A stretch of 64,000 nt of DNA from an uncultured Nitrospirales bacterium (GTDB lineage Bacteria > Hydrogenedentota > Hydrogenedentia > Hydrogenedentales > GCA-2746185). The stretch covers positions 2,175 through 66,174 of the forward strand of contig CAYPNI010000003.1 in the NCBI GenBank assembly GCA_964411925.1, read 5' to 3'. Position numbers and translations under genes: made by a program. This document shows, piece by piece, positions 9,194 through 64,000 of the stretch (the first letter of the stretch is position 1; the number at the start of each line of letters is the position of its first letter). The notes below the pieces were generated by a model. It made no database searches. It was not told where the DNA came from and saw only the letters and a program-made list of their open reading frames with translations.

Positions 9194-9209
9194 TTCGAAA
9201 ATTTTCGAA
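9194..9209. promoter_or_regulatory. Perfect 16-bp palindrome TTCGAAAATTTTCGAA, candidate activator (UAS) or bending site
   Basis: Self-complementary 16-mer centred about 80 bp upstream of the transcription start predicted from the sigma-54 promoter. It lies between the activator gene and ohr. Confidence 0.45.
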
Positions 9210-9311
9210 AAGCGGTGAGAAATTCGTCGAGAAACCGACGGCACGGTTCTTGAACGATGACCGCTGCGTTAGCGTGGTGTTACGAACGGCAATGTCGCGG
9301 ATCGAATACGT

Positions 9312-12077: not shown

Positions 12078-12253
12078 TCGATCGACAGCAGCAGCAGTCT
12101 GCTCACGTAACGGCGTCCTCCAATCCGGCGGGAAATCGATTGATTAACCTGTGAGCATCATCGGAATCGCGCGACGCCGAATACTCGGACGATCTCTCAA
12201 TGGCGAATTGATCGTGTTTGAACCGTCGCGTTTCGAGCTCACCTGAGGGAAAA

Positions 12254-19159: not shown

Positions 19160-21129
19160 TAGTTCCCCGTCTTCGCCGCGAGTTTCATCAGCAACTGATT
19201 CGCGTCCACCTGGTCGCCCACGGCGACGGATATCGACTCGACTTCGCCGTCGTAGGGCGCAACGATTTGGTTTTCCATTTTCATCGCCTCGATGACGACG
19301 AGTATCGCGCCTTTGGCGACGGCCGCGCCGCGCTGGGCGTTTACGCGCACGACCTGGCCCACCATCGGCGCTTTGATGACACCGTCGCCCGCAGCAGCCG
19401 AAGTCTCCGGCGGGGCATAGGTCACGTCGGTGAACGAGTCTGTCCGGTCGCGGAATCTCAGGTGCAGGCGGTCGCCATCGAAGGCGAAACGGGCGGACTC
19501 TGAATGGTCGCCGGACTGGATGCGCAGCGTGTCGTCGTCGAAATGCGTCACGAGGACTTGGGCACGCTGACCGGCGTGCTCCAGAGCATATGAGTTGTTA
19601 TTCATGGAGATATTCAGCGGACACACCTGATCGTTCCACGCCAGCCGCAACCGTACGAACGCATTCCCGGTCGATCGCCAACCCTTCAACAACCCAGGCA
19701 CGTTGCGCGCCGCTCGCTCGATGTAAGCCGCGCCCGCGACGAGCCAGTGCAACGCGTCCGGAGCGTCGTCGTGCTCGTCGAGAATGCGGGAGTTGTCCAG
19801 GAAGCTCGTGTGCGCGTTGCCCGAAACGAATTCCGGATGCCGGACGATGCGGCGCAGAAGCGCGGCGTTCGTCCGGATTCCCAGCACGAGCGTCTCGCGG
19901 AGCGCCGCATCGAGCTGGTCCAGCGCCTCATCGCGCGTTGCACCGGCGGCGATGATCTTGGCAAGCATTGAATCGTAAAACGGCGAGACCACGTAGCCGT
20001 TTGCGAGGCCGTGATCCACGCGCACGCCGAGCGGCTCCGGCGATTCCCATCGCAGCACGCGGCCGACCTGCGGCGCGAACCCTGCCGACGGGTCTTCGGC
20101 GTACAACCGCACCTCGATGGCGTGGCCGTCGAGTTCGACATCGTCCTGCGCCAGCCGCAGCGGGTCGCCCTGGGCAACGCTCAACTGCAACGCGACTAGA
20201 TCCAATCCCGTGACCATTTCCGTGACCGGGTGTTCAACCTGCAAGCGCGTGTTCACTTCGAGGAAGTAGAATTTGCCGTCGTCGTCGAGCAGGAACTCGA
20301 CGGTGCCGGCGTTCACGTAGCCCGCGGACTGCGCGGCGTTCACCGCGGCGGCGCCCATGGCCTGGCGCAGCTCCGGCGTCATCGCGGGGCACGGCGATTC
20401 CTCGATGATCTTCTGGTGACGGCGCTGGACCGAGCAGTCGCGCTCGCCGAGATGGATGCAGTGGCCGTGCTCGTCGGCGAGGATCTGAATCTCGACGTGC
20501 CGCGCGTGTTCGATGAGTTTTTCGACGATGAGGTCGCCGGAGCCGAACGAGTTTTTCGCCTCGGACCGCGCGCCGCGCAGGGCTTCGTCCAGTTCGTTCT
20601 CCGACGCCACGCGCCGCATGCCGCGTCCACCGCCGCCCGCGGACGCCTTGAGCAAGACGGGGAATCCAATCTTTTTCGCCTCGGCCTTCAGCGTGGCGTC
20701 GTCCTGCTTCTCGCCCTCGTACCCGGGTACGCAAGGCACGCCCGCCGCGCGCACGAGCCGCTTCGCCTCGGCCTTGTTGCCGAGCGCGTGGATGGCGGCG
20801 GGTGGCGGCCCGATGAAGACGATGCCGGCCTGCGCGCAGGCCTCGGCGAAGGCACGGTTCTCGCTCAGGAACCCGTAGCCGGGATGGATCGCCTGCGCGC
20901 CCGTGTGCTTCGCCGCGGCGATGACGCGATCGATGTTCAAGTACGACTGCGCGGCGACGGACGGTCCGAGATGTACAGCCTCGTCCGCCATCGTTACGTG
21001 CGGCGCGCCGGCGTCCGCGTCGCTGTAGACCGCGACGGTGCGGTAACCCTCGGCGCGGGCCGTCCGGATGACGCGGCACGCGATCTCGCCGCGGTTCGCG
21101 ATGAGAATCTTGTCGAAGCGGCGCGTCAT
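19159..21129 (-). CDS. Acyl-CoA carboxylase alpha subunit (biotin carboxylase + BCCP), methylcrotonyl/geranyl-CoA carboxylase type
   Basis: KILIANRGEIACRVIRT, ATP-grasp motifs, and a C-terminal biotinylation motif EAMKMEN. ATG 21129 forms an ATGA overlap with the hydratase stop. Confidence 0.92.
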   Translation of the reverse strand: MTRRFDKILIANRGEIACRVIRTARAEGYRTVAVYSDADAGAPHVTMADEAVHLGPSVAAQSYLNIDRVIAAAKHTGAQAIHPGYGFLSENRAFAEACAQAGIVFIGPPPAAIHALGNKAEAKRLVRAAGVPCVPGYEGEKQDDATLKAEAKKIGFPVLLKASAGGGGRGMRRVASENELDEALRGARSEAKNSFGSGDLIVEKLIEHARHVEIQILADEHGHCIHLGERDCSVQRRHQKIIEESPCPAMTPELRQAMGAAAVNAAQSAGYVNAGTVEFLLDDDGKFYFLEVNTRLQVEHPVTEMVTGLDLVALQLSVAQGDPLRLAQDDVELDGHAIEVRLYAEDPSAGFAPQVGRVLRWESPEPLGVRVDHGLANGYVVSPFYDSMLAKIIAAGATRDEALDQLDAALRETLVLGIRTNAALLRRIVRHPEFVSGNAHTSFLDNSRILDEHDDAPDALHWLVAGAAYIERAARNVPGLLKGWRSTGNAFVRLRLAWNDQVCPLNISMNNNSYALEHAGQRAQVLVTHFDDDTLRIQSGDHSESARFAFDGDRLHLRFRDRTDSFTDVTYAPPETSAAAGDGVIKAPMVGQVVRVNAQRGAAVAKGAILVVIEAMKMENQIVAPYDGEVESISVAVGDQVDANQLLMKLAAKTGN

Positions 21130-27312: not shown

Positions 27313-27327
27313 GCAACGGTTGTGCCA
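27313..27327 (-). promoter_or_regulatory. Sigma-54 (-24/-12) promoter, orphan
   Basis: Minus strand reads TGGCAC-AACCG-TTGC, an exact consensus match, inside a 550-bp region with no called gene. A GCCCGG-N6-CCGGGC hairpin (27258-27275) lies in the predicted leader. Confidence 0.65.
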
Positions 27328-50736: not shown

Positions 50737-51645
50737 CTAGCGCTCGCGATCGTGGCGCAGGCTGAGTATCAGGCGCACTTCGCCTTTGCCGACGCCGAGC
50801 TCTCGCGCGATTTCGGGAACGCGCATGCCGGCGTCGCTGTACTCGTAGACGCGCTTCTGAATCGGCGTGAGATACTGGCCGCCGTTGCCGCCCTCGCGCC
50901 CCCGATCGATGATCTCGGACGACGACGGTCCGCGCATGTCTTTCGCGGCGGGCTGCAGATTGAGGAGATCGCGGTAGGCTGCGCGCGTACCTTCGACTTC
51001 GTCTTCGGACAACGGCTCGTCGTGACCGTTCGAGTGCTCGCCGTCGTCGTAATCGTAGTCTTCTTCGATCTCGATGCCGTCGGCTTCTTCATCCTCGACG
51101 GTCTTCATGTCGGCAAACCGCCACCGGTCGATCAGATCCGGCTTGCGCGCAGGCTCCTCTTCGGGAAGGATTTCGAGCGGCGGCTCGATGTTCTGCAGCG
51201 GCTCGAGTTCATGCACCTCCGTATCATCGCCGGATTCTTCCGAATCCGCCTCGGGTTCGTCGAGGTCCGTCTGCGCATCGACGCCCTGCAGGCGCCGCTC
51301 GAGCGCGGAGACATCGCGGCGGGTGCGCGTGGCGAGCGCGGCGAGTTCGCGCTTGGTGCGTTCGAGCTCGGAACGGACATCGCCCGTGGACTGGATGAGC
51401 CGGCGTACTTCGTTGACCTTTTTGTCGATGCTGATATTGAACTCGCGTGCGAGATCTTTCTGCTGCGTCAGGATGTCGCGCATGGTCTGGAACAGGATCA
51501 TCATGTTCGTCAAATCGGACTGGGCCTGGGCGGACGCTGCGCCGCGGCCCGCGCCCCGATCGCTGAACAGGATGTAGAGCAGCGTCAGGAAACTCGTGAC
51601 GACGAGCCCGATCAGTCCCACGATCAAGTAAATGTCGTTTTGCAT
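50737..51645 (-). CDS. Membrane-anchored coiled-coil/acidic protein with C-terminal HTH (DUF2802-like, flagellar-cluster associated)
   Basis: 302 aa. N-terminal TM (IYLIVGLIGLVVTSFLTLLYILF), coiled coil, Asp/Glu-rich tract. C-terminal LTPIQKRVYEYSDAGMRVPEIARELGVGKGEVRLILSL. Confidence 0.55.
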   Translation of the reverse strand: MQNDIYLIVGLIGLVVTSFLTLLYILFSDRGAGRGAASAQAQSDLTNMMILFQTMRDILTQQKDLAREFNISIDKKVNEVRRLIQSTGDVRSELERTKRELAALATRTRRDVSALERRLQGVDAQTDLDEPEADSEESGDDTEVHELEPLQNIEPPLEILPEEEPARKPDLIDRWRFADMKTVEDEEADGIEIEEDYDYDDGEHSNGHDEPLSEDEVEGTRAAYRDLLNLQPAAKDMRGPSSSEIIDRGREGGNGGQYLTPIQKRVYEYSDAGMRVPEIARELGVGKGEVRLILSLRHDRER

Positions 51646-51702
51646 CGGTAGTCCTTTGCTACAACCGTACTGCCTGTCCCGGCCAATGTCCGGCCGGCCG
51701 CG

Positions 51703-52017
51703 CTACACGGTCACGTCGAGCGTGTGACCCTCTCCGGAGTCACGCGCCGTTCGCGGCGCATCAGGCTGGGCCGGCTTCGTTGTGGCGCTCCGGCCCCGGC
51801 GCGGGGGCGGCTGCTTTCCGCGGCCGTCCTGGTCTACGCCTTCGCTCTCCGTTTCGTGTGTCTGGGCGACTTCGTGTTCCCGCGCCGCGCGTTGCCGTTC
51901 CGCGTCCACCTGCGCACGCTGTTGCGCGAGCAATGTCGCACGGACGGCCGCATCCTGGATGCGCTCTGCGGCCAGGGTCCGGCCGAGTTCGCTTTGCATG
52001 TCAATCGGCTGCGGCAT
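51703..52017 (-). CDS. Hypothetical 104-aa protein directly downstream of fliA
   Basis: MPQPIDMQSELGRTLAAERIQDAAVRATLLAQQRAQVDAERQ... is a helical N-terminus followed by a disordered basic/Pro-rich tail. I recognise no family. Confidence 0.5.
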   Translation of the reverse strand: MPQPIDMQSELGRTLAAERIQDAAVRATLLAQQRAQVDAERQRAAREHEVAQTHETESEGVDQDGRGKQPPPRRGRSATTKPAQPDAPRTARDSGEGHTLDVTV

Positions 52018-52043
52018 TCGGGTCGCCTTCTACCCTGTCGTGC

Positions 52044-52805
52044 CTATATGTCCGAGCGCACTACCCGGCGGAGCTGCTTCAGCGCGGCGCCGTGAATCTG
52101 GCAAATGCGCGATTCGGATACCTCTAAGACGGCTCCTATCTCTTTCAGGGTTAATTCTTCGTAGTAGTATAAATTTAACACTTTCTGCTGCTGATCTGCC
52201 AAATCCAGGATGGCTTGCACCAGTTTTTCTTGCCTTTCAATGGCTGCTGCCTCGGATTCCGGGGAGCGCGCGGCATGGTCCTGAATCAGGTTGGCCTTGC
52301 GCGCTTCCTCGCGATCTTCTTGCGGCAGATAGTCGTCGAGCGAGAGAACCTGGGCGGTTTGGAGTTGCGCCATGGTGTCTTCAACCTGGTCCGTCGGGAT
52401 ACCCAGGGACTGCGCAACCTCGTCGTTGGAGGGTTCCTCGCCTTGTTGGTGGCGTAAGGTATCGCGAACATTTCCAATCTTGCGGGCCATCGCCCGCAGG
52501 GACCGGGGCGCCCAATCCAGCGAGCGGATCTCGTCGAGGATCGCGCCGCGGATGCGGATGGTCGCATAGGTGGAAAATTTGATGTCCTGCGCAGGGTCGA
52601 ACTTCTCGATGGCATCCAACAGGCCGAGCACGCCCCAGCCGACGAGATCGTCGAGTTCGATAACGGGCGGAATGTGGATTGCCATGCGGCCGGCGACGAA
52701 CCGGACGACGCCCATGTGGCTGACGATGAGTTCGTCTCGCGCGGCATCGTCGCCGTGTTTCTTGAATCGGGTCCAGAGATCTTTTTCGGCGGCGGCGGTG
52801 ATCAA
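52044..52805 (-). CDS. fliA: Flagellar sigma-28 factor FliA/WhiG
   Basis: 253 aa. Region 2 (GLLDAIEKFDP...KFSTYATIRIRGAILDEIR), region 3, and region 4 (LYYYEELTLKEIGAVLEVSESRICQIH). Confidence 0.92.
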   Translation of the reverse strand: MITAAAEKDLWTRFKKHGDDAARDELIVSHMGVVRFVAGRMAIHIPPVIELDDLVGWGVLGLLDAIEKFDPAQDIKFSTYATIRIRGAILDEIRSLDWAPRSLRAMARKIGNVRDTLRHQQGEEPSNDEVAQSLGIPTDQVEDTMAQLQTAQVLSLDDYLPQEDREEARKANLIQDHAARSPESEAAAIERQEKLVQAILDLADQQQKVLNLYYYEELTLKEIGAVLEVSESRICQIHGAALKQLRRVVRSDI

Positions 52806-53695
52806 CGCAGGCTCTCGATGCGCTCCCGCGGACTGACGATTTCGGTGATGCGGAGGCCGAAGCGTTCGTCCACCACGACAACATCCCCGCGGGCGATGAG
52901 TTTTCCGTTCACGAGCAGTTCGATGGGCTCATCGACCACGTGGCCGAGCTCAATGATCGATCCCGGGCCGTAGTTGAGCACTTCAGCAATCGGCACTTCG
53001 ACGCGGCCCAGGCGCGCCGTGGCGACGAGCTCGATGTCCATCACGACGTCGAGGTTGTCCGGCAGCGGACCGCCGTTGCCGCGGGCGGTGTGGTCGGCCT
53101 CGTCGTCCGGGGTGAAGTCCTTGAGAATGTCTTTCATTTCCTCGTCGCTCACCAACGGTCCCTCCACGCCCGAGGCGCGCTGCCCCAAGGCGTCCGTAAA
53201 AATCAGCACCGCGTTTCCGCGGCCCGTTTCGTCCTCAAAACTGACTTCTGCGCCGGTCAGTCCGGCGCCCAGCTTGGCGGTCAACGCCGCCGCGGCCTCG
53301 CCGATGCTGAACGCGGCCTGGTCCATCGACGCGCCGCCAATCACGGCTGCGAGACCCGACAGGCCGCCGCCGATCATCGTCTCGCAAAGTTCCTGAAGCA
53401 CGGCGGAATCGCCGGCGGAGACCGCCGCCTTCTTCGCCGGGTCCTCCCCGCCCACGCGCGCGACGAGCGAAGCGGCGCTATCGTTCGTCAGCAACAGTGC
53501 CGCGGCGCCGCCGCCTTCGATCCGCGCATGGAGCCAGACGGGGTGCGTTTCAGTCCACTTCGCGAGCATGCCGGCGTCGGCCGCGGTGGGCACGCCGGCC
53601 TTTTGCTTGAATTTCGCGCCCAGGAGTGCGCCGAGCGCCGCGAATGCGCCATCGATGAATCCGGCGGCGATTTGTTGTGCGCGTTTCGCGTCCAC
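52802..53695 (-). CDS. fliN: Flagellar motor switch protein FliN/FliY (CheC-like N-terminal part + FliN C-terminal domain)
   Basis: 297 aa. C-terminal LDVVMDIELVATARLGRVEVPIAEVLNYGPGSIIELGHVVDEPIELLVNGKLIARGDVVVVDERFGLRITEI is a canonical FliN/SpoA domain. Stop overlaps the fliA ATG (ATGA). Confidence 0.88.
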   Translation of the reverse strand: MDAKRAQQIAAGFIDGAFAALGALLGAKFKQKAGVPTAADAGMLAKWTETHPVWLHARIEGGGAAALLLTNDSAASLVARVGGEDPAKKAAVSAGDSAVLQELCETMIGGGLSGLAAVIGGASMDQAAFSIGEAAAALTAKLGAGLTGAEVSFEDETGRGNAVLIFTDALGQRASGVEGPLVSDEEMKDILKDFTPDDEADHTARGNGGPLPDNLDVVMDIELVATARLGRVEVPIAEVLNYGPGSIIELGHVVDEPIELLVNGKLIARGDVVVVDERFGLRITEIVSPRERIESLR

Positions 53696-53707
53696 GTCCT
53701 GCCGGCC

Positions 53708-54694
53708 TCAGTCGTCCCGCACAATCGAGACCAGTTGCACGGAACTCTGTTCGCCGCGTTTCCCGGGCCGGCCCATAAACCGCGTGATGCCGCCGACCCG
53801 CACCGGGATGGCTTCGGCGTGGTACGTGTCCAGCGTAACGACGTCGCCGCGCTGCAAGCGCCAGATCTCGCTCAGCGGCAGACGCGTGCTGCCCAACACG
53901 GGTTCAACGGTCACGTGCGTACGGCGCACGACGTTCTCGAGCTGCCGCCGGTTTTGCGCGAGGATTTCTGGAGCCACCTGGCGCTGGTAATGCGCCTGTG
54001 TCGAAATCTGGTCGAGAATCGGGTTGACGACGACGAGCGGCACGCACATGTTCATCGAGCCGACGGTCTCTCCGATGTAGACCTCATAGCCGACGAGAAT
54101 GACCATTTCGCTGCCGGCGACGATCTGGACGATGAGCGGGTCGCTTTCCTGGTTGACCACGCCCATCTTGAACTCGACCAGATGTTCCCACGCGCGCTTC
54201 CAACTGTCGAGGATCATCAGGATGATGCGATAGACGATGCGATCTTCGATCTCGGTCAATTCGCGCGGCGTCCCCATCGCCTGGCCGCGGCCGCCGAGCA
54301 CGCGATCGACGATCGGGAAGACCATCGACGGACTCATTTCGATGACCGCGTGGCCGTCCAGCGGCGACATGTCGATAATCGACATCGATGTCGGGCGGGC
54401 TACGGAGAGAATGAATTCGTCGTAGGTCAACTGGTCGATCGATACGAGGTCAACGCGGACGACGGTGCGCAGAAACGGCGGCAGGACGATGCCCAGCTCG
54501 CGCGAGAAAGCTTCGAACAGGCTCTGCAGCCCCTTGAGCTGGTCCTTGGAGACGCGCTCGGGCCGGCGAAAATCGTACGTGGAGAGGACGGGGCCGTCCT
54601 CCGGACTGCGCGACGCGAGATCCTCGCCACCGGAGGATTCATCGACGGACGAGAGCAGCAGGTCGACTTCTTCCTGACTGAGAATGTCGGCCAT
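53708..54694 (-). CDS. fliM: Flagellar motor switch protein FliM
   Basis: 328 aa. N-terminal LSQEEVDLLL CheY-P-binding motif, YDFRRPERVSKDQL, and a C-terminal SpoA-like domain. Confidence 0.93.
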   Translation of the reverse strand: MADILSQEEVDLLLSSVDESSGGEDLASRSPEDGPVLSTYDFRRPERVSKDQLKGLQSLFEAFSRELGIVLPPFLRTVVRVDLVSIDQLTYDEFILSVARPTSMSIIDMSPLDGHAVIEMSPSMVFPIVDRVLGGRGQAMGTPRELTEIEDRIVYRIILMILDSWKRAWEHLVEFKMGVVNQESDPLIVQIVAGSEMVILVGYEVYIGETVGSMNMCVPLVVVNPILDQISTQAHYQRQVAPEILAQNRRQLENVVRRTHVTVEPVLGSTRLPLSEIWRLQRGDVVTLDTYHAEAIPVRVGGITRFMGRPGKRGEQSSVQLVSIVRDD

Positions 54695-54846: not shown

Positions 54847-55674
54847 CTATGCGCTGCGCAGTAGCCGATTCGCCCACCGCCGCGCGCGAATGCCTGCGGC
54901 GGAATCGAGCCAGGCCAATCGGTCCAGACGTCCTTCGACTTTGGCGGCAAATGATGTGAGCGAATCGCTGCGATCGATCCAGATTCGGCGCAGTTCGAAG
55001 CGATCGCCATCCGCGGCGTTCGCGCCGAAGCGATTGGTCAATGCATAGGCGAACCCCGCTTCGCGCGCGAGCCCGACGCTCGTGGTGGAGTAATCGAGCG
55101 CGGATCCGAAGGGATAGGCGAAGCCCTCGGCAGCGACGCCGAGCTGGGTTTCAATCGCGCGTTTGCATTCGAAGATTTCCGCGCGTTGCGTCGCCGGATC
55201 GCGCGTGGACAGCCGGCAGTGCGTCATCGTGTGGCCGCCGACCGACCAGCCGCTTCGCGCGAGTTGCGCGAGCTCGTCCCACGTCATCAAGCGCGCAGTT
55301 TCGTCTGCGGGATCGTCGTGGTCGAGATGACCGCCGACGCGCCCCGGCACGGCGAACACCGCCGCGACTAGTCCGAGTCTATCGATGACGGGGGCGGCCT
55401 CCGTCAGGTTGTCGCGATAGCCGTCGTCGAACGTAATCGCGACGCCGGTCTCGGCCTCCGCGGCGCGCGCGATGGAGACGACTTCGCGATGGTCCGCGAG
55501 CCAGCGCATCTGCTCGGCGAAGTCCGCGGGCGTCACGTTCATTTCATGGTCACGACGGCCCACGCTGTGATACGTGAGAATGACCGAGCGGGTGTCGGGC
55601 GGCTGCGGCGGCGACGCAGCTGCGCGGCGTACCGCTCGTTTCAGGCGGCCCTTGAATCGTTCCCCGGCGTGCAC
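54847..55674 (-). CDS. Polysaccharide deacetylase (NodB/CE4 family)
   Basis: ILTYHSV, ITFDDGYRDN and GGHTMTHCRL motifs. The listed ORF start (56136) lies inside the upstream gene. I chose GTG 55674, so the start is uncertain. Confidence 0.8.
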   Translation of the reverse strand: MHAGERFKGRLKRAVRRAAASPPQPPDTRSVILTYHSVGRRDHEMNVTPADFAEQMRWLADHREVVSIARAAEAETGVAITFDDGYRDNLTEAAPVIDRLGLVAAVFAVPGRVGGHLDHDDPADETARLMTWDELAQLARSGWSVGGHTMTHCRLSTRDPATQRAEIFECKRAIETQLGVAAEGFAYPFGSALDYSTTSVGLAREAGFAYALTNRFGANAADGDRFELRRIWIDRSDSLTSFAAKVEGRLDRLAWLDSAAGIRARRWANRLLRSA

Positions 55675-56531
55675 GCGGGCGTCCCTTCGCGAGTTGACAC
55701 GGCCGTCATGCGGCGCGCGCGCAGCAGTCCATAGGCGTAGCCGCCGGCGTAGACGACGTACGCGACGAGCCGGATGATTTGACCGCGCAGCGCGGCGGCA
55801 ATCAATCGCGCGGGATAACGCGCGATACGGCGCGCAAACGACGTCCGCGGTTGAAACCGATCGGACGATACCGCCTCGTGCGTGTCGTACACCGATTCCG
55901 GCTCGAACTTCTGCGCGTACGCCGACCCGAATCCGTTTCGGAAAAAGGTCTTCGCGAGTGCGCTCCAGCCGTCGGGCAGGGGGTGATAGATCCGGGCGCC
56001 GGGTACCAGCACGACGCGACGGCCCGCCGCCCGGATACGGACGCGCAAATCCGGATCGAGCCCGCGCAGGATGTCCTCGCGCTCCCCCCCCACTTCGTCG
56101 AAAACGCGCCGCGGAATAGCGCAACACCCGTGGCACGCGAGATCGCTGTCGGTGACGCGCGCGACGTCGGGCGTGTGGAGCCGTGGAAATTGACCGGCCG
56201 CGCGGCGCTGAAACGGCGACGATTCAGGATCGACCGCGATGCTCGCGCCGGCCATCCCGATACGCGGATCGGCATCCAGGCAGTCCACCAGCCGTTGGAC
56301 GACGTCGTCCGCGGCAAGACGGCTGTCGTCGTCCAGGATGATGAGGTAGGCACCGTGCGAGCGGCGCACGCCGTCGTTGATCGCGCGGCCCTGCGGAGAG
56401 ACACCCTTCACGAGGACGACTTCGAAATCGCGGAACGTCTGCCGCTCGATACTCTCCAGCAGTTTCGGCACGGCCCCGCCTCGAAATCCATCCGAACTCG
56501 GGATGATGAGCGAAACGCGCGGAATCCCCAT
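55641..56531 (-). CDS. Family-2 glycosyltransferase
   Basis: VSLIIPSSDG...LLESIERQTF.DFEVVLV and ILDDD (DxD) motifs. Start taken at ATG 56531; 56567 is also possible. Confidence 0.85.
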   Translation of the reverse strand: MGIPRVSLIIPSSDGFRGGAVPKLLESIERQTFRDFEVVLVKGVSPQGRAINDGVRRSHGAYLIILDDDSRLAADDVVQRLVDCLDADPRIGMAGASIAVDPESSPFQRRAAGQFPRLHTPDVARVTDSDLACHGCCAIPRRVFDEVGGEREDILRGLDPDLRVRIRAAGRRVVLVPGARIYHPLPDGWSALAKTFFRNGFGSAYAQKFEPESVYDTHEAVSSDRFQPRTSFARRIARYPARLIAAALRGQIIRLVAYVVYAGGYAYGLLRARRMTAVSTREGTPACTPGNDSRAA

Positions 56532-56687
56532 TGCGTATCCCCCCGGCGGGGCCAAGATACCGTCCAATAGCTCGTGACCGCAATCCGCGTGGAAAATCGT
56601 GCCGCCAGTGGCATCTCTTGAAGACGCATTCCGGATCGTTCAACAGAAATACTCTGTACGGAAGTGAGTAACCTTTTGGAACACAAA

Positions 56688-56758
56688 ATATTGGGTCATG
56701 TACGTTTTACTTGAATACATATAGGTTTATTGATACCATGCACGCAACATATTGGGTC
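56688..56758. promoter_or_regulatory. AT-rich divergent control region with two copies of ATATTGGGTC
   Basis: Exact 10-mer at 56688-56697 and 56749-56758 (13 of 15 identical over AnATATTGGGTCnTG), 61 bp apart. It sits in the only markedly AT-rich stretch of the window, between divergent operons. Confidence 0.4.
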
Positions 56759-56835
56759 GTGGGACAGATCGCATACATGTCGTGACGGGTCCGGCATGTC
56801 TGCTGATTGGCGTCCTGCCATGCGGGAGGGGAAGG

Positions 56836-58389
56836 ATGTCGGGGCCCATTCTGGTTGCACGAATCGCAGGTACACCATTCACTCTCAACGACTTACGCCC
56901 AGATACGCGCTTGATGGAGATCCCGGGCGCGTTGCTCCATACGGGTCATGGTGTAGCCGTGCTGGATGCTGCGAATTTCGAAACCTACGAGATGCTCTAC
57001 CCGGAAGAGAGCCGCGCGGACACGTACGAATGGGCGTTGCGCCAGCTTCAATCCGCGTACTCGAGCTTATTCGTGCGGGGTGGCGGGGCGGACTTCGCAT
57101 TGCCCTCGAAACTCATCAAGCATCAACGCGCGGTGTTCGAGAAACTCGGAGAACGGATTGTCGCGCGGACCGATCCGGCGGCGGTCTGTTTCAAGGTCAA
57201 TTCGCGCAAGGACCTGAGGCCGACGATGCTTGCGGCAGCGCGGGTGCGTGCGACACGCCCGCGGGCGCGCATCTTCGCGTTCGGGGACGCCTTCCATGAC
57301 GATCAGACCCTCAGCCGTGCCCTGGAGGCGTTCGATGCGGTGATGCTGGGGCCCGATCTGCCGATCGCTGAATTGTGCGCGGCGGCGAATCGCCGGGCGT
57401 GGCGGCCGATCGCGAATTTGGCCTACTACGAGGGGTCGCAACTGGTCTTGACCCGCCGGGACGGCGATGCATCTCCGGCGCGCGGCGCACATTTGGAAAG
57501 ATTTCTGTACACCGCAAGTCCCGCATATAGTAAAATACGCGTCTTTGATGTTTTCGCAGTACGGTCGGGAGTAGGCGCGGGCAGTATGGACGCCGGTATT
57601 GCAACGGACCACGCCGAAACAATCGGCGCCATCCGCGCGACCATCGACGCGTTTGGCTCGCACACGATGTGCATCCGGCCGAGCGGCGGGAACGACGCCG
57701 GGCTCGAGCGCGCACTGCTCTCCAACGACCTCGGGATTTCGTACAGCACGACGATCGATCCGGCTGAGACCGCGCGCACCCGCCTTGGGCTGCTCTCCGC
57801 GTGCGGCTGCGCCGCGATCGACATCCCGGTGCATTCGGGCAGCCAGCGCCTGCTCGATACGCACTACCAGGAGAATTTTACCGTCACTCAGGTCGAGCGG
57901 CTTGCGCGCGCGGCGAAGTTTTCCGGATTGTTCACGTCGATGCACTTCACCTTTCCGTGCCGCGAGGACGATTATCACACCGAAGACGAAACCGTGCGGC
58001 TCGTCCGCCGGGCGAATCCAAATTCGGCGGTGATTTCGCCGCCGCCGTCACACGATGTACCCGGAGGCGGCGCACTCGCGCTCGAGTTTGCCCCGCTGCG
58101 CCGCCGCGCGGTGGCCCGCGCGCGCAAGCAGAACGCCGAGCTGGGCCGGAAACTGCGCGAACTGAATGTTCCGGTGGGCGTGGACGCTACGACTGCGCTG
58201 GTCGCGGGCCTGGCGGGATTTCGCGGCCGCGAATCCGCCTTCGTCGAGCTGGTGGGGCTCCAGTTGCTCTCGGGCGACACCACGGGGCTCGCGGAGACCA
58301 TCGAACAAATCAACGACGCGGCACGCAGGCCGGCGCGAGCACTGGTGTTCAAGCCGTTCGTCGCCGCGCAAAACGCCGCGGCAAACTGA
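56836..58389 (+). CDS. B12-binding-domain/radical-SAM-like protein lacking the CX3CX2C iron-sulfur motif (probable pseudoenzyme or repurposed fold)
   Basis: ATG 56836 after GGGAGGGGAAGG. Layout follows B12-rSAM enzymes (IFAFGDAF...DAVMLGPD; ...IDIPVHSGSQRLLD...FTVTQVERL...MHFTFPCREDDYHTEDET). Where SRGCPxxCxFC is expected it reads AVRSGVGAGSMDAG. No CxxxCxxC occurs anywhere in the protein. Confidence 0.6.
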   Translation: MSGPILVARIAGTPFTLNDLRPDTRLMEIPGALLHTGHGVAVLDAANFETYEMLYPEESRADTYEWALRQLQSAYSSLFVRGGGADFALPSKLIKHQRAVFEKLGERIVARTDPAAVCFKVNSRKDLRPTMLAAARVRATRPRARIFAFGDAFHDDQTLSRALEAFDAVMLGPDLPIAELCAAANRRAWRPIANLAYYEGSQLVLTRRDGDASPARGAHLERFLYTASPAYSKIRVFDVFAVRSGVGAGSMDAGIATDHAETIGAIRATIDAFGSHTMCIRPSGGNDAGLERALLSNDLGISYSTTIDPAETARTRLGLLSACGCAAIDIPVHSGSQRLLDTHYQENFTVTQVERLARAAKFSGLFTSMHFTFPCREDDYHTEDETVRLVRRANPNSAVISPPPSHDVPGGGALALEFAPLRRRAVARARKQNAELGRKLRELNVPVGVDATTALVAGLAGFRGRESAFVELVGLQLLSGDTTGLAETIEQINDAARRPARALVFKPFVAAQNAAAN

Positions 58390-58399
58390 GGAGACGCTG

Positions 58400-59653
58400 T
58401 TGAGACCGGTGACACCCCAACCCGCCGTGATCACGGGCATCGGGGTGCTCGCGTGCAACGGCATCGGCCGCGAAGCGTTCTGGGGCGCGCTGGAGGCGGG
58501 CCGTTCGGGCATTCGGTTCATCGATCGCTTCGACACGAGCGAAATGCCGTGTCACATTGCGGGCCAGCTGTGGGACTTCAACCCGCTCGACTTCATCAGC
58601 AAGGCGAATCACAAACGTTGGCACCGCGCGGTTCACCAATCGATCGCGGCGGCCAAACTCGCGATCGACGACGCCGGGTTCGAACCGTGCCCCTATACCA
58701 ACGAACGCGTAGCCGTGGGCGTGGGCACGAGTGTGGGAAACCCCGACGAAACCTACCAACACTGGATGGAAGTCTACAAGGACAAAGGGTGGAAACACAT
58801 TGACAAGCTCGCCTCGACGGCGAATTCGGGGCACGCCTCGACCGCGAACGTGTCCGCCCATTTCGGATACCGGGGCCCGGCCGTGACCATTGCGAGCGGA
58901 TGTGCGACCGGACTCGACATGCTTCATTGGGGGCGGGAACAGATCCGGCAAGGCCTGGCGGACGCCGCGCTCGTAGGCGCGACCGAGGCGCCGCTGGAAG
59001 AACTCGGATTCGCGGGCACGTGTTCGCTGGGCATTTTGTCGCAGGAGTCCAGCGAACCAGGGACGGCCATGAAGCCATTCGATTGCCGCAGCGACGGACT
59101 CGTGCTCGCGGAAGCGGCGGTCGTCCTCGTCCTCGAACGGGCAGACCACGCGCAGGCGCGCGGCGCGCGGATTCTCGGCGAAGTGGCGGGGTGCGGGTCG
59201 GCGGCGGAAGGCAACAACGCGATCGTGCTCGAGCGCGAGGGCGGCGCGGTGGCGCGTGCGATCACGGCCGCCGTGAATGACGCGGGGATGCGCCCGGAGG
59301 ACATCGACTGCGCGCATTGCCACGGCGTGTCGTTGACGAATTACGACCGCTGCGAGACGCACGGCTACAAGCTCGCGCTGGGCGACCACGCCTACCGCAT
59401 TCCGATCACGGCGACGAAATCGATGATCGGGCAGGCCTACTCGTGCGGCGGGTTGCTGAGCGTGGCGGGCGCGCTGCTCTCGCTCGACCGCGGCATCGTG
59501 CCCGCGACGATCAATCACAACGAGCCCGACGCGGAATGCGATCTGGACTATGTGCCGGGTTTGGCGCGCGTGAACGACGCAAAATCGGCGCTGGTGACGG
59601 CGCTGAGTTTTGGAGGAACGCACGCGGCAACGGTCGTCCGGTGTTGGAATTGA
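58400..59653 (+). CDS. FabF-like beta-ketoacyl synthase with Cys-His-Gln in place of Cys-His-His
   Basis: TTG 58400 (or CTG 58397), 7 nt after GAGGAG. AVITGIGVLACNG, active-site IASGCATG and CHGVS (first His) are present. The second His motif reads TKSMIGQAYSCGG (Gln where GH is expected). Confidence 0.8.
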   Translation: MRPVTPQPAVITGIGVLACNGIGREAFWGALEAGRSGIRFIDRFDTSEMPCHIAGQLWDFNPLDFISKANHKRWHRAVHQSIAAAKLAIDDAGFEPCPYTNERVAVGVGTSVGNPDETYQHWMEVYKDKGWKHIDKLASTANSGHASTANVSAHFGYRGPAVTIASGCATGLDMLHWGREQIRQGLADAALVGATEAPLEELGFAGTCSLGILSQESSEPGTAMKPFDCRSDGLVLAEAAVVLVLERADHAQARGARILGEVAGCGSAAEGNNAIVLEREGGAVARAITAAVNDAGMRPEDIDCAHCHGVSLTNYDRCETHGYKLALGDHAYRIPITATKSMIGQAYSCGGLLSVAGALLSLDRGIVPATINHNEPDAECDLDYVPGLARVNDAKSALVTALSFGGTHAATVVRCWN

Positions 59654-59711
59654 CCGCCTGCGCGCGAAGGAGACGCGATAGGCGCGCGAGCGCGTGCCTC
59701 GAGCGAACACG

Positions 59712-62243
59712 ATGGACTTACTGATTCCATCCATATTGAACGGGTTGACGGCGCTGGTCTGCTTCGGACTGGCGGTGATGGTGCTCGTGCGCAACTGGAC
59801 CAAGCGCACGCACCAAACCTTCGCCATACTCGCGCTCGTCTTCATGACCTGGGCGGTCGCCGTGTTCGGCGCGTTGCAATCGCGCGACGAAGGCGTGCTC
59901 ATCGTCTGGGTGCACATCGCCGAGTTCGTGGTGTGCTTCGGCTCGGCGGTCTTCTATCACTTCGTGGGCTACTTCCCGCGCGGCAAGTTCGACGGCGACG
60001 TGCGCATCCTGCGAATCCTGTATGCGGTCGGCATCCTCATGGCGCTCAACTCCCTGGGCCCGTGGTTTGTCGAGATCGTCGACATCACTCCTGGAAAACC
60101 GCCGATCATCCGCCACGACGACAGCATTCTTGCGCTGCCGATTGTGCAACTGCTCGCGCTCATTCTGATTCACACCAACCTGCGCCGGAAATTCCGCGAA
60201 ACGCAGGGCCTCGGGCGCCGCCAGATTCAGTTCGTGATGACGGGCATTTACGGGATCGCGATCCTGTCCACGATCACGGCGGGGATCGAGCCGATCTTCG
60301 ACATTCCGGTGTTCCAGGCCTACGGCCCGGTCGCCGTCATGCTGGTCATGGGCTTCTTTGCGTACGCCATGGTCCGGTATCACCTGCTGGATACGCGGGC
60401 GATGATCTCGCGGGCGTTCGTGTACACGTTGGCGACGGCCTTCGTCATCGTGGTTTTCATCTCGTCTACCTATCTCGTCCGCTGGTTCCTCGATGAATCG
60501 ACCGCGCTTGTCGATGTGTTTCCCGGAATACTGACGGCGTTCGTCGTCGCTCTCGTGTTCCAGGCGGTGAAGGAACAAGTCGCCAATCTGATCGAGGTCA
60601 GTTTCCTTCGCCAGCGATACAACGTGCGCGAGCTGTATACCCGGCTCGCCCAGCGATCGGCGGAAGTCATCGATCTCGAGTTGTTTCTCGCGAACGTTAC
60701 CGCGGACATTCAACAAACGATCGGCGTGCGCACCGTGCGCGTATTGCTATTGGATCCGGATGACGCGTCAACATTGGTCACCGAGTTCACCAGCGTGCCG
60801 GACGAGCCTCCGATGCGTACGCGCGAACACACGGTCCTGCTGGACTTTCTGCGCGAATACTCGCAACCGCTCATCCTCGAGCAGATCCTCCACGGCCGGC
60901 CGGACGAACGCATGGTGCGCGTGGCGAGTTGCCTCGCGGACCTCGAGGCCTTCTTCTGCCTTCCGCTCAAGACGGGCGACGGCCTGGTGGGCATCCTCAC
61001 GCTCGGGCACAAGGACACGCACGACATCTACTCCGAGCAGGAAATGGCCGCATTCCAGGCATTGGCCGGCCCGCTCGGAACGGCGATCGCCAACGCGCGG
61101 CTTTATCGCGCGCTGGCGCGCGTCCACCTGCACCAGACCAACGTCTTCGGCCAGATGCGCGAGGGCGTGATCGCGGTGGATACCGCGGGCCGCGTGACGG
61201 TCGCGAACGACTCGGTGCGCCAGTGGCTGCCCAAGGTCTCGTTCGGGCAGCACCTGAACGATTTGCCGCCGGAGATCGCGGACCTGTTGCGCACGACGCT
61301 CGATCGCGAACTGCCCGTGAGCGACTTTGAAACGGCGATCCCCGGGCACGACGGCGAATCGATCCCGTTCATTATGTCGAGCTCGTGCCTGAAGACCGAG
61401 GACGGAAAGACGACGGGCGCGGTCGCGTTGCTGTACGACCTCTCGCTCATCAAGCGGCTCGAACGGAACGTGCAGCGCGCGGATCGCCTGTCCTCCATTG
61501 GCACGCTCGCGGCCGGCATGGCGCACGAGATCAAGAACCCGCTCGTTTCGATTAAGACATTCACGCAGCTCCTGGCCGATCGCTACAAGGACCCCGAGTT
61601 CCGCGCGACGTTTGAGGAAGTGGTCCCGCACGAGGTGGACCGGATCGACACGATCGTGTCGCGCCTGCTCGATTTCGCGCGGCCGCGGCCCGTCGCATAC
61701 ACGCAGGTGAATCTGCGCCGCACGCTCGAGGAAGTGCTGGCGCTGCTGGAGAACCAGTTGCGCAAGGGGTTCGTCGAGATCAAGCTCGATTTTCCGGAAA
61801 AGCCGCTGTACGTGCTCGGCGACGACCAACAATTGCATCAGGCGTTTCTGAACCTCTCGCTGAACGCGATCGACGCAATGAAACACAAGAACGAAGGCAC
61901 GCTGACGATTCGCGCGCGCCAGAGCTATCTGTTCAAACGGCGGACGAACGTGTCCAGCCTGGTCGAGCGCAAGTGCGCGCGCATTACGGTTACGGACACC
62001 GGATGCGGCATTCCGACTGACAAGTTGCCTGATGTGTTCACGCCGTTCTTCACGACCAAACCCGAAGGGTGCGGTCTGGGACTGGCGGTGGTGCATGGGA
62101 TCATCGAAGAGCATGGGGGCGAGATCGACGTTTCGAGCGTCGAGAACGAAGGCACGACGTTCACCGTGTCGTTGCCGCTGTCCACGATGGCCGAGAAGGT
62201 GGAGGAACCGGTAGTCGAAGAAGGGGCGGAGTCCAAATCGTAG
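59712..62243 (+). CDS. Sensor histidine kinase: multi-TM N-terminal domain, GAF, PAS, HisKA, HATPase
   Basis: Six or more N-terminal hydrophobic helices. GAF (LPLKTGDGLVGILTLGHK). H-box LAAGMAHEIKNPL. N/G boxes (LNLSLNAIDAM, DTGCGI, GCGLGLAVV). Confidence 0.9.
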   Translation: MDLLIPSILNGLTALVCFGLAVMVLVRNWTKRTHQTFAILALVFMTWAVAVFGALQSRDEGVLIVWVHIAEFVVCFGSAVFYHFVGYFPRGKFDGDVRILRILYAVGILMALNSLGPWFVEIVDITPGKPPIIRHDDSILALPIVQLLALILIHTNLRRKFRETQGLGRRQIQFVMTGIYGIAILSTITAGIEPIFDIPVFQAYGPVAVMLVMGFFAYAMVRYHLLDTRAMISRAFVYTLATAFVIVVFISSTYLVRWFLDESTALVDVFPGILTAFVVALVFQAVKEQVANLIEVSFLRQRYNVRELYTRLAQRSAEVIDLELFLANVTADIQQTIGVRTVRVLLLDPDDASTLVTEFTSVPDEPPMRTREHTVLLDFLREYSQPLILEQILHGRPDERMVRVASCLADLEAFFCLPLKTGDGLVGILTLGHKDTHDIYSEQEMAAFQALAGPLGTAIANARLYRALARVHLHQTNVFGQMREGVIAVDTAGRVTVANDSVRQWLPKVSFGQHLNDLPPEIADLLRTTLDRELPVSDFETAIPGHDGESIPFIMSSSCLKTEDGKTTGAVALLYDLSLIKRLERNVQRADRLSSIGTLAAGMAHEIKNPLVSIKTFTQLLADRYKDPEFRATFEEVVPHEVDRIDTIVSRLLDFARPRPVAYTQVNLRRTLEEVLALLENQLRKGFVEIKLDFPEKPLYVLGDDQQLHQAFLNLSLNAIDAMKHKNEGTLTIRARQSYLFKRRTNVSSLVERKCARITVTDTGCGIPTDKLPDVFTPFFTTKPEGCGLGLAVVHGIIEEHGGEIDVSSVENEGTTFTVSLPLSTMAEKVEEPVVEEGAESKS

Positions 62244-62261: not shown

Positions 62262-64000
62262 ATGAATATCATCATCGCTCTCGCCGACGACCGAACCATC
62301 GTGGAGTCCCTTCGCGCCGCGCTGCCGAAGATTGACCTCCTGGTAGTGGAGAAGACCGTCCCGGACGCGCTGCGGCGGCTTGTGAGCATGCGACCCGATG
62401 CGATCGTGCTCGACGATTCGCGGAGTCTCGGCCTGGACGCGCTGCGCCAGATCATGGACTCCGCGCCGACCGTTCCGGTGGTCGCATTGCTGTCCAACGC
62501 GCATGGGGACACCGCATCGGCGTACTTCATGGCGGGGGCGCGGGCGTGCATTGCAAAACCGTTCAGCCTCGAAGAACTTGAAGAGGCCTTCGAGCGCTGC
62601 CGCGCGCCCGAGCCCGCGGCCGAGACACCGTTGGAGCCGGCGCCTTCGTTCACGCAGGCAAACTCGATAACGCAGCACCAGATGGCGCTTCGGTGGATGG
62701 GCCGGACGCTCGGCCACGCCGAGGACACCGCGCGGCTTGCGCAAGGCTTGATCGACGTGCTCGTTGACGCCTTCGACGCCGTACGCGCGTGCGTCCTGCT
62801 TCAAGCCAATAACGCCGTGCGGGTGGCCGCCAACCACGGCATCCCCCCCGCAGTGGCGAACGGCGTGCAGCTACGCTTCGACCAGGGCGTGATGCGGCGG
62901 CTCGAACAACAGCCCGCGCTGGTGGATCGGCGCCGCCTCTCCGCGAACGATTCCGCGGAGCGTGAGTTGTCGGTCCTGGGCGGCCGGTTCGCGCTACCGC
63001 TGATGACGGGCGGGCGCGTCTGCGGCGCGATCGTCGTCGGCGAGAAGGCCACCGGCACGGATTACGACCGGGACGAAATCGATCTGCTGCTCACGCTGGC
63101 CCGCGCGACATCCTCGTGCCTCGAGCGCGCGCAACGGCATCGGGACACCTCGCGCCAGCAATCGCGGCTCGACGCGGTGCTCGCCAATATCACCGCGGGC
63201 GTCGTGACGGTGGGCGCGGACAAGAAGATCACGATGATGAACGAGAGCGCGGAGCGAATTCTGCGCCTGAACGCGGCGGACCTTCTCGGACGGAGCGTAC
63301 AGAAACTGGGCTCCGCATTCGCCGATATCGTCCTGCGGACGATGAGAGATGCTACGCCGCGCGTGCGCCAGCGCGTGCGCGACGCGGCATTGCGCGCGGA
63401 ACTTGGCGTGAGCGTCACGCCGCTCGGCGCGGAGGGCGCGGTCGCAATATTCTCCGTGCTCACCTCGGACGACCGCGAGACCGAAGAAGAGATCGGGTTC
63501 AGCCCATTGTGGAAGTTCCTCGCAAACCGGGTCGCGCAGGAGATCAAAAACCCGATGGTGGCGATCAACACGTTCGCGCAGTTATTGCCGACCCGGTACG
63601 AGTCCGACGAATTCCGGCGGGAGTTTTCGGAGGTCGTCCAGGGTGAGGTGGGGCGCATCAACCAGGTGGTCGAGGCGCTGTACGAGTTTGCCGCCCAGCC
63701 ACGGCTCGAGTTCGCCGTCTCAGACCTGACCCGCGACGTCCAGGGCATCCTGAGCGATTTCGAGCATATCTTGAAGGAAAAGGGAATCCAGCTTCAGGCG
63801 CAGTACGAAACGAGCGAGATGCCCGTCCGCGTAGACAACCACCAATTCGCGCGAGCAGTGCGAAATGTGATACAAAACTCCATCGAAGCGATGCCTCACG
63901 GGGGAACGTTGAAGGTATCGACGCGCCGCGACAATGGCCGTTGCGAGTTGATCGTCGGCGATACCGGTACGGGGATCAACGAGGGCGATCGGCCGCTCGT
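62262..64000 (+). CDS. Receiver-GAF-PAS-kinase-like protein with Gln at the H-box histidine position; 3' end beyond window
   Basis: My own translation from ATG 62262: MNIIIALADDRTIVESL...DAIVLDDSRSLGLDAL...AKPF (REC); GAF (LPLMTGGRVCGAIVVGEK); PAS; H-box reads RVAQEIKNPMVAINTFAQLL. N-box NVIQNSIEAM and G1 GDTGTGI are present. Not in the track because there is no in-window stop. Confidence 0.8.
   Translation, partial: MNIIIALADDRTIVESLRAALPKIDLLVVEKTVPDALRRLVSMRPDAIVLDDSRSLGLDALRQIMDSAPTVPVVALLSNAHGDTASAYFMAGARACIAKPFSLEELEEAFERCRAPEPAAETPLEPAPSFTQANSITQHQMALRWMGRTLGHAEDTARLAQGLIDVLVDAFDAVRACVLLQANNAVRVAANHGIPPAVANGVQLRFDQGVMRRLEQQPALVDRRRLSANDSAERELSVLGGRFALPLMTGGRVCGAIVVGEKATGTDYDRDEIDLLLTLARATSSCLERAQRHRDTSRQQSRLDAVLANITAGVVTVGADKKITMMNESAERILRLNAADLLGRSVQKLGSAFADIVLRTMRDATPRVRQRVRDAALRAELGVSVTPLGAEGAVAIFSVLTSDDRETEEEIGFSPLWKFLANRVAQEIKNPMVAINTFAQLLPTRYESDEFRREFSEVVQGEVGRINQVVEALYEFAAQPRLEFAVSDLTRDVQGILSDFEHILKEKGIQLQAQYETSEMPVRVDNHQFARAVRNVIQNSIEAMPHGGTLKVSTRRDNGRCELIVGDTGTGINEGDRPL

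Follow-up and report, generated by a model that had tools for sequence, protein, structure and literature searches.

A radical SAM-derived protein without its cluster motif and a Cys-His-Gln ketosynthase open a conserved five-gene cassette with two sensor kinases

Why would a relative of the radical S-adenosylmethionine (SAM) enzymes that has no iron-sulphur (Fe-S) cluster motif be kept beside a ketosynthase with an altered catalytic triad? The question is raised by a stretch of 64,000 nucleotides (nt) from contig CAYPNI010000003.1 (GenBank assembly GCA_964411925.1, positions 2,175 to 66,174 of the forward strand) of an uncultured Nitrospirales bacterium that GTDB places in the Hydrogenedentota; this whole stretch is called the window below. 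Its open reading frame ORF1 (56836..58389, + strand) encodes a radical SAM-derived protein of 517 amino acids (aa) without an Fe-S cluster motif, composed of a Rossmann-like domain, a partial TIM barrel and a helical domain. ORF2 (58400..59653, + strand; 417 aa) encodes a ketosynthase with the fold of beta-ketoacyl-acyl carrier protein synthases I and II (KAS I/II), belonging to a cassette-specific subfamily. A preliminary description had treated the pair as a two-gene condensation or tailoring module. Comparison of related loci gives a different answer: the pair forms the first two genes of a self-contained, conserved five-gene signalling cassette, and the tightest partner of the ketosynthase is the membrane sensor kinase encoded downstream.

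The gene order in orthologous loci runs from the ORF1 homologue through the ketosynthase, a seven-transmembrane (7TM) kinase and a hybrid kinase with a receiver (REC) domain to a sigma-54 response regulator. In the window, the two sensor kinases named in the preliminary description are present on the + strand. The first (59694..62243, 849 aa) combines HisKA_7TM, GAF, PAS, HisKA and HATPase_c domains. The second (62262..64000) begins with the receiver domain and is truncated by the window end; its orthologues have the architecture REC-GAF-PAS-HisKA-HATPase, and the sigma-54-dependent response regulator comes after them (L001-L011). This regulator resembles AtoC, NtrC and LuxO, with 413 bits for AtoC and 339 bits for LuxO, both below cut-off. 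In most of the loci consulted, -1 to 82 nt separate neighbouring cassette genes, which argues for an operon, and the stop and start codons of ketosynthase and kinase often overlap. ORF1 itself starts at an ATG preceded by GGGAGGGGAAGG and stops at a TGA (58387-58389). The ten-nt spacer and the GAGGAG described ahead of the ketosynthase are both there, the GAGGAG overlapping the ORF1 stop codon and ORF2 starting with TTG at 58400.

Linkage was counted by script on distinct loci from a metagenome scan seeded with the ketosynthase alignment, which yielded 80 loci. Where the ketosynthase carries Gln in place of the second catalytic His (Gln-type), a radical SAM-family gene lies directly upstream in 58 of 60 loci, compared with 0 of 11 loci with a His-type, ordinary FabF enzyme. 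The two genes are therefore kept together, as had been proposed. The association with the kinase is tighter still: a HisKA_7TM kinase gene stands directly downstream in 62 of 62 Gln-type loci with downstream DNA and in 0 of 12 His-type loci. Among the 35 Gln-type loci with enough downstream DNA, the hybrid kinase was found in at least 27 and the sigma-54 regulator in at least 29. Both are minimum counts, because the strict cut-off (>300 bits) misses copies in the divergent clade-2 loci, which have the two genes upstream. The cassette loci thus link an enzyme gene to a membrane sensor kinase and a regulator. The five cassette genes still stand together on the Hydrogenedentota contigs L010 and L011, where none of the flanking genes is the same. 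A PfkB-family sugar or nucleoside kinase gene (298 aa, no equivalog match) usually occurs after the sigma-54 regulator in the branch of the window, whose ORF1 relatives share a C-terminal AVGN tail (L001 at 18950-19846, L003, L004, L009, L016, L017, L019, L028, L029 and others); it does not follow the regulator in the second branch or in the sister cassettes described below.

A different partnership had been suggested by the genes on the other side of the pair, namely a family 2 glycosyltransferase (GT2; 55641..56567, - strand) and a polysaccharide deacetylase (PF01522; 54847..56136, - strand, listed as a 429-aa ORF with a GTG start). Their divergent arrangement is confirmed in the window. The proposal that followed from it was a module for condensation or tailoring that would work with GT2 and deacetylase, either to acylate a polysaccharide or to produce an unusual lipid; it gains some force from the same adjacency in several related loci (GT2 is present in L001-L009, L014, L015, L021, L045 and L053). 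The adjacency is lineage-specific, however. Both genes lie outside the core cassette, and are kept only in this lineage and some relatives. Neither L010 and L011 nor L074 of the second branch nor the sister loci L092-L094 have them beside the cassette, whereas the kinases are always present. Together with the absolute linkage to the 7TM kinase, this makes such a module very improbable, and a polysaccharide-linked acyl chain loses its basis. The statement that no acyl carrier protein (ACP), acyltransferase or reductase gene is adjacent holds well beyond the window: genes for ACP, acyltransferase, ketoreductase or other reductase, and thioesterase were found in none of the cassettes or related loci examined, and the cassette ketosynthases never adjoin acpP or fab genes in these loci. 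In a search of the full-text literature, neither the pair nor the cassette turned up, and no Cys-His-Gln ketosynthase or comparable cluster-less radical SAM family was described. As far as can be told, the cassette and the serial cluster loss set out below are undescribed, in agreement with the earlier impression, and all parts come from known superfamilies.

The ketosynthase departs from the housekeeping pattern in a consistent manner. ORF2 contains both thiolase-fold ketosynthase domains (PF00109 at 5.5e-39 and PF02801 at 5.8e-21) and has the length of its orthologues. Its score against the NCBIfam fabF model (TIGR03150) is 318.5 bits, under the cut-off of 493.75, and it is therefore not a housekeeping FabF. 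Residue alignment to the FabF structures 4ls5 and 1j3n places the catalytic Cys in ASGC168ATG, the first His in CH308GVS, and TKSMIGQ345 against the GH of the second His. The Cys-His-Gln reading of the preliminary description is thereby upheld: instead of the Cys-His-His triad of FabF, ORF2 has Cys168 (58901-58903), His308 (59321-59323) and Gln345 (59432-59434, codon CAG), with Lys340 at 59417-59419, all on the + strand. Cys, His, Lys and Gln occupy these positions in 120 of the 120 best ORF2 homologues, at 58-100% identity. Relative to ordinary FabF proteins of the same scan, the subfamily carries the changes T166S, T312L, N315Y, H345Q, A350G and G403S, which fall at otherwise invariant positions of the active site. 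ORF2 also reads HGVSL for the H-G-T-x-T motif and SFGG for GFGG. Both hydroxyl residues of H-G-T-x-T are replaced in every cassette ketosynthase (e.g., HGNAI or HGISN), whereas the FabF-type controls read HATST, HGSST or HGTST. In FabF-type enzymes, the threonines of this motif hydrogen-bond the phosphopantetheine arm, and the two His form the oxyanion hole (bioRxiv 10.64898/2026.05.19.726425). A neighbour-joining tree groups the cassette ketosynthases together, apart from the FabF controls.

These alignments indicate that Gln345 is an old, invariant subfamily trait and not a lesion. It does not mark a crippled enzyme, because it is invariant in the subfamily and because the subfamily also pairs with intact radical SAM partners. 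That Cys, His, Lys and Gln are strictly kept over deep divergence argues for a catalytic ORF2. A role as chain-length factor or KS-beta was considered and rejected, given the invariant Cys168 and the absence of a second ketosynthase gene from the cassette. A neutral variant of the lineage's housekeeping FabF was likewise discarded on the presence of Gln in all homologues, the cassette context outside any fab cluster and the low fabF score. The broader suspicion of an artefact or trivial variant, in the form of sequencing errors, pseudogenes or a neutral His-to-Gln exchange, can point to the single base that separates CAG (Gln) from CAC or CAT (His), and no other support for it was found. The same residues recur in all homologues, both ORFs are intact under strong purifying conservation, and the ketosynthase always stands in the cassette; we consider this explanation negligible. 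Error or decay of the two genes is excluded by the triad missing in 16 of 16 ORF1-family proteins and by the uniform Gln.

The ancestry of ORF1 had to be traced through its family. Pfam gave no match, neither to Radical_SAM (PF04055) nor to B12-binding (PF02310), and the sole NCBIfam match was TIGR04072 at 15.7 bits (E 0.0045), below the 360-bit cut-off. Against PDB sequences, phmmer returned one chance match, and the best result of a profile search was AprD4 at E 0.26. Among 5.8 billion proteins there are 15 close homologues, at 47-66% identity, with the invariant blocks GSQ.LLD and PC.(E/D)DDYHTEDET. A profile of these 16 sequences recovered 486 relatives from 1.8 billion representative proteins, 126 of them at E<1e-30. 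About one quarter of the relatives listed carry SRGCxxxCxxC near residue 250, and several of the bearers match Pfam Radical_SAM and B12-binding; P0137 and P0160 match PF02310. In hhalign, the ORF1 family aligns with the closest fully canonical family, in which C255, C259 and C262 are invariant, at 100% probability (E 1.3e-40) over 499 columns, so that the homology spans all three domains.

Structure prediction leads to the same assignment. An AlphaFold model from a 95-sequence alignment reached a pLDDT (predicted local distance difference test) of 88 and a pTM (predicted template modelling score) of 0.89; it was used in place of a model from the 16-sequence alignment, which was poor (pLDDT 62). 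The best PDB folds found by Foldseek are TsrM, AprD4, MgmA, OxsB, TokK and CysS (E 1e-12 to 1e-6), and nearly all of the 38 PDB matches at E<=1e-3 are radical SAM enzymes. The model contains the partial (beta/alpha)6 TIM-barrel fold at about aa 237-401. Its N-terminal Rossmann-like domain (aa 1-205; pLDDT mostly 80-98, block means 63-98) matches TsrM, OxsB and TokK. To our knowledge, no sequence motif is diagnostic of cobalamin binding in class B radical SAM proteins. The B12-binding/radical SAM layout attributed to the first gene is therefore borne out, and the comparisons indicate that ORF1 is a homologue or descendant of B12-binding radical SAM enzymes over its full length. It should be named a radical SAM-derived protein rather than a radical SAM enzyme, because its homology and fold are not accompanied by the defining cluster motif or by a match to the Pfam model.

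How, then, was the cluster lost? ORF1 contains neither CX3CX2C nor CX2-8CX2C. Its cysteines number six (positions 118, 181, 279, 323, 325 and 375) and not five as first counted. The triad is found in 0 of 16 proteins of the ORF1 family, that is, ORF1 and its 15 close homologues. Judged from these motif scans, ORF1 cannot bind the canonical radical-generating cluster, as had been stated from the outset. The former cluster-binding loop (aa 242-262, VRSGVGAGSMDAGIATDHAET; 57559..57621, + strand) aligns with SRGCPxxCxFC of intact relatives, in place of which ORF1 reads VRSGVGAGSMDAG (aa 242-254). Nowhere else does the close family vary so much or carry so many indels as in this loop, which has low pLDDT in the model. 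The triad is ancestral on a neighbour-joining tree that comprises 168 family sequences and is rooted with the canonical sister family; parsimony requires at least 13 changes of its state on this tree, which is a rough one. Alignments contain all stages of decay, from SRGCxxxCxxC through SRGxxxxGxxx to deletions. These comparisons make it clear that the triad was lost many times independently in the branch of the window.

Other parts of the protein are held constant. The block HSGSQRLLD (aa 333-341; 57832..57858, + strand) takes the place that GIESGS has in canonical members, where barrel strand beta4 ends, and its G335 and S336 are invariant in 95 family members. The block FPCREDDYHTEDET (aa 373-386; 57952..57993, + strand), past strand beta5, corresponds to the P-x-P-F-E-T region; P374, D379 and E385, as well as R388 just beyond, are invariant in the same 95 sequences, and D378, H381 and T382 nearly so. 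The full set of unchanged residues comprises D44, G324, G335, S336, P374, D379, E385 and R388. Relative to the sister family, the motif AGSSTP has become RPSGGND, GIESGSQ has become PVHSGSQ, and PxPFET has become PCREDDYHTEDET. Because these invariant residues persist despite the loss of the triad, ORF1 is evidently selected for something besides radical chemistry.

The C-terminus is a second family trait. ORF1 ends in QNAAAN-COOH (aa 512-517; 58369..58386, + strand), the local form of an ...A-V-G-N-COOH tail that occurs in 138 of the 168 family sequences and in none from the canonical sister family or the second branch. These six residues have pLDDT below 50, which predicts disorder, and the tail may serve in docking or be a C-terminus that undergoes modification. 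AVGN-tail members that still bear the triad already lack the aromatic residue before the third Cys (CSGMCYGC, CGRGCCAC), in contrast to CPxxCAFC of the sister family. A change in SAM handling may therefore have preceded the loss of the cysteines.

The cassette is older than this decay. It occurs in at least three deep branches, and in two of them the cluster motif is intact (CX3CX2C or CX4CX2C). In the second branch, the ketosynthases are 37-40% identical, GC is 0.42-0.46 and the flanks are unrelated. The order there (L074) is REC-GAF-PAS protein, sigma-54 regulator, B12-radical SAM protein, ketosynthase and 7TM kinase, and the radical SAM protein has CX4CX2C (CYYGKCNFC) and matches Pfam B12-binding and Radical_SAM. 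The canonical sister family comprises more than 800 proteins, with source labels that include Chlamydiota, Aureabacteria, Armatimonadota and Omnitrophica. Its genes (L092-L094) accompany a ketosynthase, one or two 7TM kinases and relay proteins in a looser arrangement: intergenic gaps reach about 440 nt in L092, and in L093 and L094 the radical SAM gene is convergent to the kinase-ketosynthase genes. Of the ketosynthases in these sister cassettes, those of L093 and L094 are Cys-His-Gln and that of L092 is Cys-His-His. L092, an Aureabacteria cassette at 4014-12230, has an intact radical SAM gene. Its ketosynthase reads KSMMGH, and the second His retained there may be ancestral. Two paralogous 7TM kinases flank this ketosynthase, and the ketosynthase of L066 likewise lies between two 7TM kinases.

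What might such a cassette do? Our tentative reading, in which our confidence falls somewhat short of even, is that the product of the ketosynthase is a lipid-like ligand or input of the 7TM kinase, that the signal is relayed to the sigma-54 activator, and that ORF1 acts as a non-radical partner. The ketosynthase would be active, with the Gln amide taking over the hydrogen-bonding job of Asn in Cys-His-Asn condensing enzymes. Its substrates would be acyl thioesters supplied by general metabolism, and the missing phosphopantetheine-binding threonines suggest that their carrier may be unusual. From them it would make, or it would process, a beta-keto compound of lipid-like character. Tailoring of this compound would have fallen to the B12-radical SAM enzyme in ancestral cassettes, and the compound would be the ligand or input of the adjacent 7TM kinase. 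The signal would then pass from the 7TM kinase to the REC-kinase, from there to the sigma-54 activator, and on to targets elsewhere. In this lineage, ORF1 would serve either as a scaffold or as a ligand- or cofactor-binding subunit of a ketosynthase/kinase complex. The earlier notion of a ketosynthase regulated by a pseudoenzyme scaffold is thus possible for the window, with the qualification that the ancestral partner appears to have been a real radical SAM enzyme.

Promoter evidence bears on the direction of this circuit. No good sigma-54 site was found in the GT2-ORF1 intergenic region of the window, and a consensus scan, itself crude, found a sigma-54 promoter upstream of the enzyme genes in 1 of 45 loci against a background of 1.75%, i.e., without enrichment. 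Autoregulation of the enzyme genes by the sigma-54 activator of the cassette is left unsupported. The missing enrichment weakly favours the enzymes as input to the regulator rather than its output. The reverse direction is taken by a membrane-lipid homeostasis circuit of the DesK/DesR kind, in which the 7TM kinase would sense a physical state of the membrane and the enzymes would be effectors, the ketosynthase (with the ancestral radical SAM enzyme) remodelling acyl chains from the housekeeping fatty-acid synthase. ACP and fatty-acid synthase genes would then be unnecessary in the cassette, the housekeeping ACP being used, and B12-radical SAM genes do lie beside FabF homologues in lipid clusters (the TIGR04072 family and the ladderane cluster). 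The HisKA_7TM domain also suits such a role, as it appears only as a sensor domain, wholly membrane-embedded and with no ligand reported (PMC5847659). On the other hand, besides the promoter result, the enzymes share an operon with the kinases and the regulator instead of forming a separate target, the ketosynthase lacks the phosphopantetheine-binding threonines expected of an ACP-dependent elongating enzyme, and loss of the triad would abolish radical SAM tailoring in most of this branch. We regard the homeostasis circuit as doubtful, with perhaps a fourth of our confidence.

A further rival does without a product. Both proteins may be enzyme-derived sensor subunits that bind a metabolite or cofactor (an acyl thioester, SAM or cobalamin, and in motif-bearing members an Fe-S cluster as redox or oxygen sensor) and modulate the kinase by contact. 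This agrees with the absolute linkage of ketosynthase and kinase genes, which often have overlapping codons. It also agrees with the survival of the radical SAM partner after cluster loss: blocks on its surface or in its active site stay invariant, and its conserved flexible tail would suit docking. Motif-bearing AVGN-tail members, moreover, have already lost the aromatic residue of the SAM-binding motif. However, the invariance of Cys168, His308, Lys340 and Gln345 down to about 37% identity exceeds the needs of a mere binding protein, and the radical SAM partners of the older branches look fully catalytic. Pure sensor subunits therefore seem unlikely to us, a shade more so than the homeostasis circuit.

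The preferred reading, a ketosynthase product that feeds the 7TM kinase, has its own difficulties. Its functional claims rest wholly on gene linkage and residue conservation. A lone ketosynthase acting on acyl-ACP and malonyl-ACP would yield just ordinary beta-ketoacyl-ACP, which leaves its distinctive chemistry unexplained. The repeated loss of the triad means that the radical step is dispensable, and a regulatory or scaffold role fits this at least equally well. Two Gln-type loci with a 7TM kinase (L043 and L066) have no radical SAM-family gene in the fetched DNA by tblastn. The coarseness of the sigma-54 consensus search counts in the same direction.

Extended beyond the window, the reading would describe a new and widespread signalling class of mostly uncultured phyla, in which a Cys-His-Gln ketosynthase, at first aided by a B12-radical SAM tailoring enzyme, supplies a lipid-derived ligand to a 7TM kinase, the radical SAM partner has repeatedly become a cluster-free pseudoenzyme, and the AVGN tail together with the acidic DDYHTxxE site provides a non-radical role in the complex. 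We consider this wider claim possible and on balance doubtful. The source labels of cassette carriers include Hydrogenedentota, Armatimonadota, Omnitrophica, Aureabacteria, Chlamydiota and the FCB group. The closest ORF1 orthologues (L005-L008) are labelled inconsistently as uncultured Nitrospirales, Rhodothermaeota and Candidatus Hydrogenedentales; given the many Hydrogenedentota-labelled ketosynthase homologues, some of these labels of metagenome-assembled genomes are probably wrong. If the claim is true, the cassette would be a new enzyme-coupled two-component family with hundreds to thousands of members, in phyla with almost no known signalling biology, and would offer the first candidate input for the HisKA_7TM sensor domain. 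Nature would also have provided a rare series of repeated cluster losses in a radical SAM enzyme that stays under selection, which would help to ask what the scaffold can do without radical chemistry. Moreover, it would add a Cys-His-Gln class of KAS I/II-fold ketosynthases without phosphopantetheine-binding threonines, pointing to an unusual substrate carrier. Present annotations read 'hypothetical protein' and '3-oxoacyl-ACP synthase II', the latter being misleading.

The remaining features of the locus lie around the cassette. The divergent intergenic region between GT2 and ORF1 (56568..56835, no strand assigned) has lower GC and holds a 20-nt direct repeat, ACACAAAATATTGGGTCATG (56681-56700) and ACGCAACATATTGGGTCGTG (56742-56761), at a spacing of 61 nt. 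At the equivalent place L004, the closest relative, carries an inverted repeat that includes CAACATATT. The intergenic repeat may be a putative regulator binding site. A scan of 56400-60000 for sigma-70 promoters and terminators gave nothing useful, with no good sigma-70 consensus in the intergenic region, and no Rfam match at E<=1 to a cobalamin or SAM riboswitch was found upstream of ORF1. Elsewhere in the window, the perfect sigma-54 -24/-12 consensus TGGCAC-N5-TTGC occurs at 9129-9143 (-) and 27313-27327 (-). The former site lies just upstream of, or within the annotated 5' end of, an OsmC-like gene, after which a 4HBT thioesterase and an alpha/beta hydrolase follow on the - strand. The genes by these sites are candidate targets of a sigma-54 activator.

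The listed deacetylase ORF overlaps GT2 by about 500 nt, whereas its orthologues are 274-277 aa long with a GT2 overlap of about 34 nt. The listed start is therefore probably too far upstream, and the true one probably lies downstream of it, near 55680. Flagellar and motility genes (FliM, FliN-like, a FliA-type sigma factor, DUF6115 and a hook-length gene; 50737-54694, - strand) stand immediately upstream of the GT2/deacetylase pair in this lineage, in the window and in orthologous loci, so that the cassette is flanked here by motility and exopolysaccharide-type genes.

Comparison with known systems places each part of the cassette. ORF1 shares the Rossmann-like domain and partial TIM barrel of class B radical SAM proteins (TsrM 6wte, AprD4 6fd2, MgmA 9ccb, TokK, CysS and OxsB) and differs from them in having neither the Cys triad nor a Pfam Radical_SAM or B12-binding match, in the exchange of E for H/T in the ESGS block, in a new acidic DDYHTxxE block and in the C-terminal AVGN tail of its family. 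Departures within that class have precedents: TsrM works without radical SAM cleavage, and the N-terminal domain of AprD4 need not bind cobalamin.

ORF2 shares with FabF/KAS II, FabB and KasA the thiolase fold, about 35-40% identity, the catalytic Cys, the first His, the Lys and the gating Phe (SFGG). It differs from FabF in the Gln for the second His, HGVSL for H-G-T-x-T, N-to-Y at 315 and G-to-S at 403. KAS III and chalcone-synthase-type enzymes have a Cys-His-Asn triad. In this group, exemplified by FabH/KAS III, chalcone synthases, OleA and PpyS, an amide likewise replaces the second His, being Asn there and Gln in ORF2; these enzymes form the KAS III-type branch of the thiolase fold, whereas ORF2 is of the KAS I/II type by sequence. 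By analogy, we infer that the Gln of ORF2 may be functionally equivalent to this Asn. Photopyrone synthase PpyS is a precedent for a ketosynthase-type enzyme that serves as a signalling-molecule synthase (PMC4578411).

At the level of gene clusters, the TIGR04072 and anammox ladderane lipid clusters place a radical SAM gene beside an atypical FabF homologue, as the window does. These lipid clusters carry ACP and other fatty-acid synthase genes and no sensor kinases, unlike the cassette in the window. The altered-triad FabF of the lipid clusters has no Cys and acts as a chain-length factor, whereas ORF2 keeps its Cys.

Signalling circuits offer the closest parallels in layout. The autoinducer synthase/receptor kinase circuit of Vibrio feeds LuxO. 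In its CqsA/CqsS and LuxM/LuxN branches, as in the cassette, an enzyme gene stands beside that of a polytopic membrane kinase, with relay to a sigma-54 activator of the NtrC/LuxO type. The Vibrio enzymes are unrelated to those of the cassette, CqsA being pyridoxal phosphate-dependent and LuxM an acyl-homoserine lactone synthase; the kinase sensor of the cassette is HisKA_7TM, and its regulator falls below every equivalog cut-off. DesK/DesR of Bacillus is genetically coupled to a fatty-acid desaturase and resembles the cassette in joining a membrane-embedded kinase to a lipid-modifying enzyme. It differs in kinase family, regulator type and enzyme, and its desaturase is a separate target, whereas the enzymes of the cassette share an operon with their kinases.

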